In this document: positions 6,488-55,542 of the stretch, piece by piece
Position numbering within the stretch: position 1 is the stretch's first letter
Layout of the letters: every line of letters starts with the position of its first letter
Origin: Halorussus marinus
GTDB lineage: Archaea > Halobacteriota > Halobacteria > Halobacteriales > Haladaptataceae
DNA: 64,000 nucleotides
Direction of reading: 5' to 3'
Assembly (NCBI RefSeq): GCF_004765795.1
Contig: NZ_SBIV01000010.1
Span: 1 to 64,000, forward strand
Notes under the pieces: generated by a model
The model's input: only the letters and a program-made list of their open reading frames with translations
Told to the model about the DNA's origin: nothing
Databases searched by the model: none
Made by a program: the position numbers and the translations under genes

Positions 6488-8620
6488 ATGGAAACGGTTT
6501 GTGCGAGTGATTATCACGACATCGTACAGGTCGCCGACCCGAGAGTCTCGCCCGACGGCGAGCGAGTCGCGTTCGTTCGGAAGGTACCGAGCGACGACGA
6601 GGAGTACGAGGCGACCGTCTACGTCGTCCCGATCGGCGGCGGCGAACCCCGGCAGTTCACGGTCGCCGAGGGAGTCGACAGCAGTCCGCGGTGGAGCCCG
6701 AGCGGCGATCGGCTCGCGTTCGTCAGCACTCGGGGGGCCGACGACGGCCGCCCGCAACTGTGGGTGATGCCGACCGACGGCGGCGAAGCCCGGCGGGTCA
6801 CCGACGTGGCGGGCGGCGTCTCTCAGATCGCGTGGTCGCCCGACGGGGACAAGATCGCGTTCGTCCAGCAGGCGACGGCCGACGACCGCGAGACGGGTCG
6901 GGACACCGGGCTCGACGGCGAGGAGTACGAGCCCGACCAGCCCGACCCCCGCGTCATCGACCGGATGGTCTACCGGGCCGGCGAGCGGTACTTCGACGGC
7001 CGGCGCGATCACGTCTACGTCGCGGACCTGCGAGCCGACGGTGACGGCTCGGAAGCCGCGAGCGGTCGGTCGCCGCGAGCGGCCGTCCGGCGGCTCACCG
7101 ACGGCGACTACGACCACACGACCCCCGAGTGGGGCGACGAGTCGACGCTGTACTTCGGCGTCCGGCGCACCGGCGATCCCGACGACAACATCGACCTCGA
7201 CGTCGTGGCCTACGACCTCGACGCCGACGGGGAGGCCGAGACCGTGGTCGAGACCACCGCGTGGGGCCCGATGCTGGCGGCCACGGGCGACGGCCGGATC
7301 GCCTACGCGGAGACCCCCGAGGAGAACGCCACGCTCCGACAGACGGAACTGAAGGTGATCGACCGCGAGACCGGGACCGTTACCACCCCGACCGAGGACC
7401 TCGACCGGACGCTCTCGGCGGACGTGTCGGTCCAGTGGGGCCCCGACGAGTCGGAGCTCTACTTCTCGACGCCCGACGAGGGCGACGTCGCGGTCTGGCG
7501 CGCGCCCGGCGACGCGAGCGCCGCCCCCGAGCGCGTGGTCGCGGACGGACACGTCTCGGGCGGGTCGGTCGGCGCGGACGCCGTGGCGTTCGTCAGGTCC
7601 GAGTGGGACCACCCCGGCGACGTGTTCGTGACGACGCGGGCCGGCGCCGAGACCAGACGACTCACCCGCGTCAACGCCGACTACCTCGACGACCGGGCGA
7701 TCGGTCGACCCGAGGAGATCCGCTTCGAGAACGAGTCGGGCGAGCAGATTCAGGGTTGGGTACTGACGCCGCCGGACTTCGATAGCGCGGCGTGGAACGC
7801 CGCGGAACAGTCGAGCGGCGACGAGCCGCGAGACCCCGACGAGCAGTACCCCCTCGCGGTCGAGATCCACGGCGGTCCCCACGCGATGTGGTCGACCAGC
7901 GGGACGATGTGGCAGGAGTTCCAGGTGTTGGCGGCGCGGGGGTACGTCGTCTTCTGGTCGAACCCCCGCGGGTCGACCGGCTACGGCGAGTCGTTCATGT
8001 CCGCGGTCGGCGAGGGCGGCTGGGGGCCGGTCGCCGCCGAGGACGTGCTGGCCGGCGTCGACGACGTGGTCGACCGGGAGTACGTCGACGCGGACGACGT
8101 GTTCGTCACCGGCGGGAGCTACGGCGGCTACATGACGACGTGGCTCGTCGGCCACACCGATCGCTTCTCGGGCGCGGTCAGCCAGCGGGGCGTCTACGAC
8201 CTCAACAGCTTCTACGGGTCGACCGACGCGTTCAAACTCATCGAGTGGGACTTCGACGCGACGCCGTGGGACGACCCCGAGTTCCTCTGGGAGAACTCCC
8301 CCGCGGCGTACGCCGATCGGGTCGACACCCCGACCCTGCTCGTCCACAGCGACGACGACTATCGCGTCCCGGTCAGCAACGCCGAGATGCTCTATCTCAT
8401 GTACAAGAAAAACGGCGTCGAGACCCGGCTGGTCCGATACCCCCGCGAGGGCCACGAGCTCTCGCGGAGCGGCGAGCCCGGCCACGTCGTCGATCGGCTA
8501 GAACGCATCGTCCGGTGGTTCGACGGCTACTCCGATCACCGCGACGTGGCGCCGGCGCTCGAACGCGGCGACGAGGGGCTGTCGGCGAGCGAGGACGATC
8601 CGGAGGCGAACGGCGAGTAG
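6488..8620 (+). CDS. S9 family (prolyl oligopeptidase/acylaminoacyl) peptidase
   Basis: N-terminal propeller repeats (WSPSG, WSPDG), IHGGP, nucleophile elbow GGSYGG, D(Y)RV and EGH catalytic motifs. Confidence 0.93.
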   Translation: METVCASDYHDIVQVADPRVSPDGERVAFVRKVPSDDEEYEATVYVVPIGGGEPRQFTVAEGVDSSPRWSPSGDRLAFVSTRGADDGRPQLWVMPTDGGEARRVTDVAGGVSQIAWSPDGDKIAFVQQATADDRETGRDTGLDGEEYEPDQPDPRVIDRMVYRAGERYFDGRRDHVYVADLRADGDGSEAASGRSPRAAVRRLTDGDYDHTTPEWGDESTLYFGVRRTGDPDDNIDLDVVAYDLDADGEAETVVETTAWGPMLAATGDGRIAYAETPEENATLRQTELKVIDRETGTVTTPTEDLDRTLSADVSVQWGPDESELYFSTPDEGDVAVWRAPGDASAAPERVVADGHVSGGSVGADAVAFVRSEWDHPGDVFVTTRAGAETRRLTRVNADYLDDRAIGRPEEIRFENESGEQIQGWVLTPPDFDSAAWNAAEQSSGDEPRDPDEQYPLAVEIHGGPHAMWSTSGTMWQEFQVLAARGYVVFWSNPRGSTGYGESFMSAVGEGGWGPVAAEDVLAGVDDVVDREYVDADDVFVTGGSYGGYMTTWLVGHTDRFSGAVSQRGVYDLNSFYGSTDAFKLIEWDFDATPWDDPEFLWENSPAAYADRVDTPTLLVHSDDDYRVPVSNAEMLYLMYKKNGVETRLVRYPREGHELSRSGEPGHVVDRLERIVRWFDGYSDHRDVAPALERGDEGLSASEDDPEANGE
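7045..7080 (+). repeat. Partial/variant copy of the in-frame palindromic element
   Basis: Hairpin CGGCT-CGGA-AGCCG followed by CGAGCGG-N7-CCGCGAG; encodes GSEAASGRSPRA inside the S9 peptidase. Confidence 0.5.
7783..7833 (+). repeat. 51-nt double-hairpin element in frame within the S9 peptidase
   Basis: TAGCGCGG-CGTGGAACG-CCGCGG-AACAG-TCGAGCGG-CGACGAG-CCGCGAGA, colinear with 47328-47378. Confidence 0.75.
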
Positions 8621-44046: not shown

Positions 44047-45429
44047 ATGGACAGCACCGCCGGAGAGCGGGTCTACTACGTTATCAGCGACCTCCACATC
44101 GGCGGGGACGAGCAACTGGAGGAGGTCGAGTTTCTCGACGAACTGCTCGGCTTCCTCGAACGGCTGGCCGAGACGGACGAGAACGCCGAGCTGGTGATCA
44201 ACGGCGACGCCTTCGGGCTGTGGGAGTTCACCTCGGTCGACGGAATCGAGAAGTTCGACGTCCTCGAGGAGACCTACCCGGCGCTGTTCGAACAGCTCCG
44301 GGCGACCGGCGAGAACGTCCAGATCACGCTGTTGGCCGGCAACCACGACCACGAGCTCGCGGCCTACGACGCGTACGTCGAGCGGTTCGCCGAATACAAC
44401 GTCGAACTCGTCCAATCGGAGTCGATCACCCGTCGCGTCGGCGAGCGCACGATCCACTTCGAACACGGCCACCAGCGCGACTCGAACAACCGGATCGACG
44501 ACTGGGAGAACCCCAACGCCACGCCGCTCGGATACTACTACAACACGCTCGTTACCAGTCGGGCGGGCAAGCTCTCCGAGCGGGGCCGGTACAACTGGCT
44601 GAAGGACGTGCAGGCGGTCACGCCCACCGAGCGGATGCCGGTCTGGCTGTTCTCGAAGTACTTCTACCGGGAGATGAATCCCCTCCTGCGGTACGCGCTC
44701 GTCCCGTTCTTGTTGCTGTTCAACGTCAGCGCGCTCCTCGCGGTGCTCGCGGGGCTCGATCTGGTCGGGGTCTGGTCGATGCCCGTCGACTCGCTCGCCG
44801 GGTTCCTCGCGCAGTTCGGGGCGGCCGGGACGGCGGTCTACCTGCTCCTCGTGGTCAACGTGGCGGTCACCGGACTCCTGTTGCTGGTGGGCGTCCCGCT
44901 GTATCTGCTCCGTCGGGACATCAGACAGACCATCGACCGCTTCGGCGTCTTCGAGACCGAACTCACCGTCGACGCCGAGGCACCCTACGAGGAGGCCGCC
45001 CGCGAGATCTTCGCGGAGTCGCCCGAGACGGCGATCTTCTGCTACGGTCACACCCACCGCCCGTCAGTGGGGTCGGTCGGCGACGGCCTGCTGGTCAACA
45101 CCGGGACGTGGCTCAAGCGCCTCCACCGCCGCGACGGCGTTATCGGGGTCCTGCCGCCGGTGTTTTACCCGTCCTATCAGCTGTGTGCGGTCCGCATCGC
45201 CGCCGAGTCCGAGGGCGTGGCGGTCGAGTACGAGGAGATAGAGAAGCCGAGCCCGAGCCCGGAAGAGCTGACGCTCACCGAGCGTCTGCTCACCCTCGGC
45301 CGGAAGCCGAACCCCGACCTGCCCGACCGAGCGGTCGTCGAGAACGAAGCGCCCGATTCGACGCCCGACGTCGTCGAGACGGTCGAGCGAAGCGAGCGCG
45401 GAGCCGAGCGGCCGCGGACCGATAGCTGA
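44047..45429 (+). CDS. Calcineurin-like metallophosphoesterase with internal TM segments
   Basis: SDLH, NGD, GNHD, EHGH, GHTH, NTGTW. Confidence 0.88.
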   Translation: MDSTAGERVYYVISDLHIGGDEQLEEVEFLDELLGFLERLAETDENAELVINGDAFGLWEFTSVDGIEKFDVLEETYPALFEQLRATGENVQITLLAGNHDHELAAYDAYVERFAEYNVELVQSESITRRVGERTIHFEHGHQRDSNNRIDDWENPNATPLGYYYNTLVTSRAGKLSERGRYNWLKDVQAVTPTERMPVWLFSKYFYREMNPLLRYALVPFLLLFNVSALLAVLAGLDLVGVWSMPVDSLAGFLAQFGAAGTAVYLLLVVNVAVTGLLLLVGVPLYLLRRDIRQTIDRFGVFETELTVDAEAPYEEAAREIFAESPETAIFCYGHTHRPSVGSVGDGLLVNTGTWLKRLHRRDGVIGVLPPVFYPSYQLCAVRIAAESEGVAVEYEEIEKPSPSPEELTLTERLLTLGRKPNPDLPDRAVVENEAPDSTPDVVETVERSERGAERPRTDS

Positions 45430-46885: not shown

Positions 46886-47157
46886 TTCTACGCCACGATC
46901 CCACCGTGCGAGGCCGCGACTGTCGCGACGTTTCTCGGGGGTCCTGTCGATCGACGCCTTCCGACGCCGGCCTCCGGACGAGGTTCGGGCACGCCGCCGA
47001 AGATACGACGACCGCACGATAGCGTCGCGGCGGGCGTACGCATCTCGATTTTATATCGCGATATGGAGTTTATTACAACGATCGAACACCGTCCCGGCGT
47101 CCGGTGCGATCGCCCCGCACCGGCCGACTTTTACCCGCGCTGGTCCAACGCCGACGT

Positions 47158-47532
47158 ATGGCCGACTTCGACCCGGAGCGGTTCGAGGACAAGTACGCGA
47201 ACTACTTCAACGAGCTCCAGAAGGCGTACAAGAACGCCTTCGAGCGGATGAACGACCGGTACGACTCCGAGCTCGTCCACGCCATCGACCAGCAGGTGCT
47301 CAACGAGAGCGAGCCCTTCTACGAGAGTAGCGCGGAGCGGAGCTCCGCGGACGATTCGAGCGGGCGGAGCCCGCGAGAACACGACGGCGAGTTCCGCGTC
47401 GAACTCCCCGAGAACCCCGCCGACCGACTGCAGGGCGTGCTCGTCGACGAGGAGAAACTGGACGAACTGCTCGACGTCTACGTCGAGACGATCGAGACCG
47501 AACTGCGCCGCGTGTTCGATTTCGAGAAGTGA
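47158..47532 (+). CDS. Conserved haloarchaeal protein (DUF5783-like) carrying an in-frame insertion
   Basis: MADFDPERFEDKYANYFNELQKAY...SELVHAIDQ.VLNESEPFY. Confidence 0.8.
   Translation: MADFDPERFEDKYANYFNELQKAYKNAFERMNDRYDSELVHAIDQQVLNESEPFYESSAERSSADDSSGRSPREHDGEFRVELPENPADRLQGVLVDEEKLDELLDVYVETIETELRRVFDFEK
47328..47378 (+). repeat. 51-nt double-hairpin element in frame within the DUF5783-like gene
   Basis: TAGCGCGG-AGCGGAGCT-CCGCGG-ACGAT-TCGAGCGG-GCGGAGC-CCGCGAGA, colinear with 7783-7833. Confidence 0.75.
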
Positions 47533-47683
47533 GTCCCTCGCGAGTCGTGGCCGTGGCCGCTCGGCGCAATAACAGTAGTTGGTAGGACGATTTTTTATTC
47601 GACGGGTCGAAACCGTCCGTTCAGTACAGGGCTGTACTGGGCGTTGCACTTAGTTCCTCTTTCAACGCGACCAGTGCTATCCG

Positions 47684-48049
47684 ATGAGCGAATTCGAGCA
47701 GTAAGACGAGAACTGAGCGAAGCGGGATACCCCGGATTCGAGTTTCGATAACGGGGAAATCGTCCTCGGATCTCTCCGGTTTGTGGGTGGTCGGGAACTA
47801 CCGCGAGACGGGAAACTCAACCCAGAGAGTCTCCCACGGCCGTTTCGGATTGTCGAGTGGCTACCACTCGTTTCGGCCACGCCGGCCGACCCGGAGTACG
47901 CCCCGGATATAATCCACGGGATTGCAGAGAAACACGGGCTAAAGGTCGTGATCATCGGCGTGGACGAAGCGCAGGTCCGGATCACACTCTGCGATCCCAC
48001 TGATGAGACTCGGGCAGAGTCGCGATTAGCGACTTCCTTGGGGATTTAG
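47684..48049 (+). pseudogene. Possible degraded gene in a lower-GC patch
   Basis: ATG 47684 is in frame with ORF 47783-48049 but interrupted by TAA/TGA; a shifted frame reads VRRELSEAGYPGFEF. Confidence 0.35.
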
Positions 48050-55203: not shown

Positions 55204-55542
55204 TCAGTCCTCGGTCCAGTACATCAGCGCCTCCTTTGGCTCCCCGCAGTTCGGACACTTCTCGGGGAGGCCGCCGTCGATCTCGCCCATCTCGCCGCAC
55301 TCGGTACACCGCCACATCAGCTCCGCCTCGCCGAAGTCGTGGCCCGCGCGGGCGTGCTCGACGCTGAGTCCCTCGACGCCCTCGCGAGTCGTCACGAAGA
55401 ACCCGCCCTCCTCGAACCCCCGGATCGTCCCGAGCTCGGTCCCGTCCTCGTCGTAGACGGTCGCGCCCAGATCGAGCCGCATGATCGCTTCCTCCGCCTC
55501 CGGTTCCCCCTCCTCGGCCGGCGTTTCACCTTCCCCACTCAT
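55204..55542 (-). CDS. Small protein with PRC-like N-part and rubredoxin-like C-terminus
   Basis: WRCTECG...PEKCPNCG.PKE. Confidence 0.85.
   Translation of the reverse strand: MSGEGETPAEEGEPEAEEAIMRLDLGATVYDEDGTELGTIRGFEEGGFFVTTREGVEGLSVEHARAGHDFGEAELMWRCTECGEMGEIDGGLPEKCPNCGEPKEALMYWTED

Follow-up and report, generated by a model that had tools for sequence, protein, structure and literature searches.

A twin-hairpin DNA element lying in frame in haloarchaeal genes, with a probably recurrent landing site in DUF5783

Several gene-less repeats resemble the DNA element analysed here. The Rickettsia palindromic elements (RPEs) and the archaeal coding palindromes (Suyama et al., 2005) are treated in two reviews; according to the available parts of these (PMC2229807, PMC10969869), RPEs are gene-less palindromic repeats which lie in frame in unrelated conserved genes and are tolerated in loops of the encoded proteins. 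They measure 105-146 bp, form one long stem-loop, carry terminal inverted repeats and are confined to a genus. The second group, SMR-A and the PATEs, was described for the haloarchaeon Haloquadratum walsbyi. In the available part of that source (PMC3119063) these repeats are gene-less and cause no target duplication. SMR-A is about 110 bp long with prominent inverted ends and inserts, again without duplication, into palindromes near the ends of IS605-type elements. PATEs have their origin in IS605 ends and reach 20-50 bp beyond the palindrome; terminal-only PATEs of 52 bp occur in Haloquadratum, and in-frame insertion into proteins is not described in this part of the text. PATEs and other TnpA substrates possess a fixed targeting motif of 4-6 bp and an internal guide (PMC3119063, 10.1101/2023.03.14.532601, both in their available parts). 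The third group, the GTAG/CGTC REP elements associated with RAYT proteins, consists of short imperfect hairpins, some of them intragenic and in frame, which are likewise found without target duplication; these elements are bacterial and mostly extragenic, and the term "halo" is absent from the accessible text of the source (PMC3733652).

The window analysed here is the whole stretch of 64,000 nucleotides from Halorussus marinus (contig NZ_SBIV01000010.1), a haloarchaeon with a genome of 3.76 Mb and 67% GC. An in-frame element within a small gene had been predicted from the letters of the window. This was confirmed: the open reading frame belongs to the DUF5783 family, and the 124 aa of its product compare with 105-112 aa for orthologues without the insert (Table 1). 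The exact extent of the insert was obtained from orthologous loci, of which 30 were taken from 61 genomes and 28 were readable. A total of 24 loci were empty, three were filled (the window itself and L002 and L003, which carry the same insert in two genomes of another family) and one contained an unrelated shorter insert. All 14 orthologues read from the same genus lacked the insert. The alignment defines 54 inserted nucleotides that interrupt a Gly codon after its second base, without target duplication, and a metagenome contig (run X3) omits precisely positions 47328-47381. The original prediction had given 47328-47378 and had allowed for boundaries a few nucleotides farther out; its start was correct, while the true end lies 3 nt beyond, at 47381. 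Similarly, the low-complexity peptide had rightly been read as the insert, except that its first Ser is the altered Gly codon of the host.

Both predicted hairpins were present as written. Their GGA loops belong to the DUF5783 copy, the commonest hairpin loop of the family being GAA. Hairpin 2 has an additional co-varying pair, 47353:47380, past a bulge. Folded as DNA, the insert reached a z-score of -3.5, and 1 of 200 shuffled sequences folded equally well. The base directly 3' of the element (47382) is a C; 68 of the 78 young copies of the family share it. In an AlphaFold2 model of the host protein (56 rows, mean pLDDT 83) the insert forms a turn between the strands 52-57 and 77-82, with pLDDT values below 50 at residues 61-72. 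The insert is thus predicted to occupy a surface beta-turn in a low-confidence region of the protein, in agreement with the surface loop that had been suspected. A fold search of the model against the PDB retrieved nothing at an E value of 0.001. We regard the 54-nt insert as almost certainly a genuine copy of a mobile family.

Table 1. Features of the window that belong to the twin-hairpin element, its copies and their host genes.
Feature	Position	Strand	Basis or remark
Host gene, DUF5783 family, 124 aa	47158..47532	+	Open reading frame and Pfam match
Twin-hairpin element, 54 nt, in frame, +18 aa	47328..47381	+	Ends set by empty orthologues
Hairpin 1, 8-bp stem, 3-nt loop	47331..47349	+	
Hairpin 2	47355..47379	+	6-bp stem 47360-47374, tandem G.A mismatch, 3 more pairs
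Left junction, purine-purine, no duplication	47326..47327	+	
Copy 1, in frame, 51 nt (+17 aa in the S9 peptidase)	7783..7833	+	Stems differ from those of the DUF5783 copy
S9 peptidase gene with copy 1 and a degenerate copy	6488..8620	+	
Degenerate copy, in a second loop of that peptidase	7028..7083	+	Covariance model, E 5.6e-4

A first copy had already been seen in the window, and the insertion into the DUF5783 gene had been considered independent of it. This proved right, as copy 1 occupies a separate site in an S9 peptidase gene 39.5 kb away. The second loop of the same peptidase is a repeated landing site, too; a clearer copy was found there in one genome of the same genus (L346). With a covariance model, the genome yielded 20 matches at E values up to 1, 15 of them below 0.01, and the six best were all located in frame within genes. 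Plain repeat finding and BLASTN within the window did not detect the family because its stems vary. Two further observations concern other sequences of the window. A GA-rich mini-hairpin motif (45385-45412) lies in the final codons of a metallophosphoesterase gene (44047-45429) and is possibly the remnant of a related repeat. Short GC-rich, mutually similar sequences follow a TGA at 47530-47560 and at 55360-55395 and perhaps represent another small repeat.

Beyond what had been predicted, the family turned out to be order-wide. A pattern with fixed spacing gave 366 matches, which are spread over 175 of the 401 Halobacteriales genomes searched, and the reversed pattern used as control gave none. 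The covariance model was positive in 9 of 18 further Halobacteriales genomes and in 0 of 132 genomes of the phylum outside this order. Matches were obtained in 112 records of the genome collection, and all 80 titled ones are Halobacteria. Viral contigs gave no match, phage records none covering 80%, and the Rfam covariance models none up to E 1 for positions 47100-47700. Genomes with the element contain 1-9 strict copies, and 12-48 covariance-model matches each were counted in five copy-rich genomes. The element lengths of 48, 51 and 54 nt are all multiples of three, and among metagenome matches, for which variable gaps were allowed, the exact core length was kept in 67 of 74. The 149 copies with coding flanks fall into about 98 distinct host-site clusters, and the annotated host genes include merA and CobN. 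On six haloarchaeal plasmids (H3-H6, H8, H9) the element was observed within annotated mercury reductase genes. In a gene which we take to be PurK-like, one loop is filled in nine loci with compensatory stem differences (L070, L071, L103, L142, L145, L163, L168, L235, L078); other shared host sites hold 2-6 copies each.

Conservation resides in the hairpins. In an alignment of 66 copies 96% of the stem cells were paired, and 129 changes affected both sides of a pair, compared to 44.6 in shuffled alignments. Five pairs that the search pattern leaves free were examined with one copy per host site (98 copies); they are formed in 96, 93, 91, 92 and 77 of these, where independence predicts 44, 41, 53, 45 and 37. 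Co-varying stem changes alter residues, for instance Ala/Glu together with Ala/Ser. Invariant residues are those fixed by the search pattern and carry no information on conservation. A sister class (L267-L296, e.g., L291, L270, L272) is shorter by one base in the linker and by two in hairpin 2, hence its length is still a multiple of three. It consists of a 48-nt core with a 3-nt tail, has the left end and the GAG^CGG target in common with the main class, is expanded in some genomes and was found nested in longer intergenic hairpins as well as in frame within genes. At the site of copy 1, three genomes share one unusual left hairpin, which continues into a long right half in two of them and into a short one in the third (L341, L343, L044). 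Judged from the sequences, this hairpin swap points to re-templating or conversion between copies, because two frame-shifting indels must have arrived together.

The reading frame could be scored for 182 copies; 149 of them have coding flanks, and every one of these uses the same sense frame. A separate gene call for 193 copies placed 161 within genes, 160 of these in sense and in one frame, and 32 between genes; the lone antisense copy (L278:1311-1815) is in frame and belongs to the short class. Five of the six frames are free of stop codons in at least 176 of the 182 copies, and the junction motifs by themselves predict only 31-44% for the frame in use. Purifying selection is the simplest filter behind the single frame, because the used frame alone is acidic (D+E 0.21), rich in Ser and Gly and without large hydrophobic residues. 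A strand bias at the insertion stage is possible in addition: between co-oriented genes 13 intergenic copies were in sense and 3 in antisense orientation (p 0.02), although some of the 13 probably lie in missed genes.

For the analysis of junctions 78 young copies were used, defined by an initial T and a final AGA or ACA. Terminal repeats of 5 nt were found in none of them. Target duplications of 4, 3 and 2 nt were seen in 0, 1 and 9 of the 78, and nested insertions are exact. CG follows directly 3' in 66 of them, giving a junction consensus of purine-purine^CG. The site GAG^CGG was used by 38 of the 78, mostly at a hairpin foot that belongs either to hairpin 2 in an older copy or to a similar hairpin. 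Five copies, which may go back to one event, share a single hairpin as their site; it is similar to the sequence, presumably an IS605-type right end, that lies behind a TnpB gene in the H. marinus genome. The left 4-mers comprise 18 different sequences, and the hairpins start 2-3 nt from the element ends. The IS608 pairing rule, used as a test for an internal guide, fits at most 6 of the 78. Folding of target sites gave divergent results. The 25 real empty DUF5783 alleles showed a pairing at the cut of 0.65 versus 0.47 in controls, with a nominal p of 0.002 for related sequences. The 34 other young gene targets were no more hairpin-like than random in-frame control sites (0.44 versus 0.47, p 0.74), and this speaks against structure-guided targeting. 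The class of nested targets in this test was defined by its hairpin motif, which makes its p value circular. As a separate observation, the inner stems of haloarchaeal IS605-type end hairpins share the tandem G.A architecture of the element, not its sequence (L302, L304, L306; G000:C11 behind 65699).

The DUF5783 codon emerged as a recurrent landing site, a second point beyond the original prediction. Among the best 120 protein clusters, a ranking which favours filled ones, 36 had a recognisable insert at the codon and 81 were empty. In an even draw with a cutoff of E 1e-40, the recognisable filled allele occurred in 11 of 401 genomes from four families, plus two decayed ones; decayed copies are found in L259, L260 and L261. 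Three clusters carry further insertions within the insert. An insert at this codon was also seen in a divergent subfamily of DUF5783 (L262, L264; P0068, P0086, P0072, P0107, P0110), of which only the filled members would rank high enough to appear. In a tree of the protein flanks, the allele of the window is placed among empty relatives (38 empty, 1 filled), with Halorussus as the nearest named rows; this quick tree of 102 columns is poorly resolved and leaves out 2 of the 120 proteins, both with insert. The tree of the DNA flanks omits 3 of 46 parsed rows, namely one with an unrelated insert and two that were duplicates. On this tree the distribution of the 13 filled rows takes 9 changes to explain, and their grouping in one clade was rejected (AU p 5.4e-5). 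Across families the inserts are 0.90 identical, compared to 0.82 for their flanks and 0.75 for random pairs within the family. The insertion point is bordered to the left and to the right by about 20 well-conserved nt, and no excess identity indicating co-transfer was detected beside the junction: 0-21 nt to its left, identity was 0.83 between filled alleles, 0.87 between filled and empty and 0.91 between empty ones. All 12 full inserts contain the pair G26-C53, which occurs in 22 of 187 copies overall, 4 of the 22 being DUF5783 itself, and in about 10% of the copies at other sites; this sub-variant is also present in other genes (L061, L180, L096). From these sequence comparisons it is likely that the same codon was filled several times in unrelated lineages. 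Two readings are possible: a preference of the shared sub-variant for the DUF5783 site, or the homing of a single filled allele through conversion of the insert alone.

Our main reading is a gene-less mobile element that is pasted in without a scar, with a nuclease-ligase acting in trans on folded single-stranded DNA as the putative mover; we give it a probability of about 0.45. This mover is the best guess because of the scarless insertion, the paired hairpins with purine-rich loops and the tandem G.A mismatches. Tandem G.A mismatches stabilise hairpins of single-stranded DNA. The folded element would be the thing recognised and moved, and targets might be chosen partly by structure. The empty DUF5783 site may be a hot spot, as it can fold into a similar hairpin arm and encodes a tolerant beta-turn, and one sub-variant may favour sites of this kind. 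Selection would then retain only the frame that yields an acidic Ser/Gly linker; a bias towards the non-template strand may contribute. The nearly neutral peptide would leave copies to decay or to be re-templated by others. Searches with half elements, left-only and right-only, found no autonomous form. The left half alone was matched 36 times, in 24 of 301 genomes, and the 30 loci examined were mostly sister-class or decayed copies; the right half alone gave 5 matches. Against this mechanism stand the negative outcome of these searches and of those at TnpA loci (see below) and the fact that random draws from the pool of copies cannot yield 12 of 12 inserts with G26-C53, which common descent explains more simply.

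A rather doubtful but possible alternative takes up this point: the family is mobile, the DUF5783 site was filled once, and the allele spread between haloarchaeal lineages by homing-like, insert-only gene conversion. The uniform G26-C53 sub-variant, the insert identity exceeding that of the flanks, the conserved 20 nt on either side and the hairpin-half swaps at the site of copy 1 are in its favour, as is the efficient conversion of insertions in Haloferax (PMC8223754, available part). In the same part of that source, however, the conversion tracts measured span hundreds to thousands of bases, which weighs against conversion of the insert alone; co-converted flanks are absent, filled alleles being least alike beside the junction, and the divergent subfamily is filled at the identical codon. 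Old protein-level adaptation with vertical inheritance and many losses appears very improbable. The four families with a filled allele and a peptide composition typical of halophilic proteins would suit it. Had the original prediction been wrong, a segment conserved in the protein rather than in the hairpins would have been expected across distant orthologues. The insert was indeed found in distant orthologues (families f8, f10, f13), though in a patchy manner and without forming a clade; its family-wide conservation is at the level of the hairpins, and compensatory changes alter amino acids. Together with the 11 genomes that carry a recognisable allele and the decayed copies, this argues against vertical inheritance, and the DNA flank tree and the insert and flank identities bring this reading close to refutation.

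The two remaining explanations concern the mover. That the element is a terminal-only PATE, moved by the peel-and-paste reaction of an ordinary IS200/IS605 TnpA, is improbable. Two hairpins, the lack of inverted ends and duplications and the occurrence of TnpA in 160 of 301 genomes agree with it. The element was, however, not found beside transposase genes at the 39 TnpA and 7 TnpB loci sampled; 30 TnpA loci gave no match, and in the 16 others the best match lay outside the IS boundary. TnpA occurred at a similar rate in genomes that carry the element (72 of 134) and in those that do not (88 of 167; p 0.91, kin not independent), and Y1_Tnp was found neither in the genome of the window nor in three of the five copy-rich genomes. 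The varied left 4-mers, the rare fit of a guide and the distance of the hairpins from the ends do not suit TnpA, either. Insertion at the RNA level, by ligation into mRNA and reverse transcription, or removal of the insert by splicing can hardly be expected. The near-absolute sense orientation in genes and the intergenic lean are as it would predict, but one antisense in-frame copy exists and strict keeping of the frame would be needless for an intron. The archaeal bulge-helix-bulge is a 4-bp helix between two 3-nt bulges. This canonical structure is absent, since at most 2 of the 4 central pairs formed in all 78 junctions. We also offer, as an unlikely proposal, a transposase-independent homing micro-element. 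One 54-nt sub-variant would re-colonise a core-gene codon across families and in a paralogue without flank transfer; a look-alike hairpin in the empty site would guide it, and a host enzyme would move it. Paired indels would keep its length a multiple of three, hairpin modules would be swapped in place, and it would evolve as a selfish linker compatible with proteins.

Through this family, a common class of low-complexity Ser/Glu/Asp/Gly/Arg loops in the proteins of haloarchaea is explained as selfish DNA. It also calls for caution, as shared indels at one codon can be homoplastic in haloarchaea. Furthermore, the question of the mover of RPE-like coding palindromes and SMR repeats becomes directly testable with the twin-hairpin family, because its boundaries are exact, its filled and empty alleles occur naturally in hosts that are cultured and genetically tractable, and one of its targets is hit repeatedly. 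No description of the element was found in the literature searched, including the available parts of PMC3403918 and PMC7002104; an earlier one may exist, the Haloquadratum supplements being outside the search.

Like the RPEs, the element is dispersed in frame through unrelated hosts, with 160 of 161 intragenic copies in about 98 site clusters. Unlike them, it comprises 48-54 nt with two short hairpins and no 5-nt terminal repeat in any of the 78 young copies, occurs order-wide, uses one frame only and fills the same codon in several families. A MITE would show terminal inverted repeats (0 of 78) and target-site duplications (3 nt in 1 of 78). From the REP elements it differs by its missing GTAG tag, since it begins at the T and the preceding G belongs to the target (G in 41% of 133), a GTAG arising only where the target has G as its last base, and no element was found beside the Y1_Tnp loci sampled, as a RAYT partner would require. 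With SMR-A it shares the haloarchaeal hosts, the lack of genes and of target duplication and, in five of 78 young copies, the site of insertion, but neither size nor inverted ends. As in PATEs, palindromes lie near both ends, inverted ends are lacking and no duplication occurs; unlike PATEs, it shows no match to IS ends in the sampled loci, no fixed targeting motif and no internal guide, and it is inserted in frame into proteins. From the Haloquadratum HqIRS repeats it is set apart by description only, not by sequence identity. The element works like RPEs and SMR/PATE repeats, yet fails the size, terminal-repeat or IS-end tests of each.
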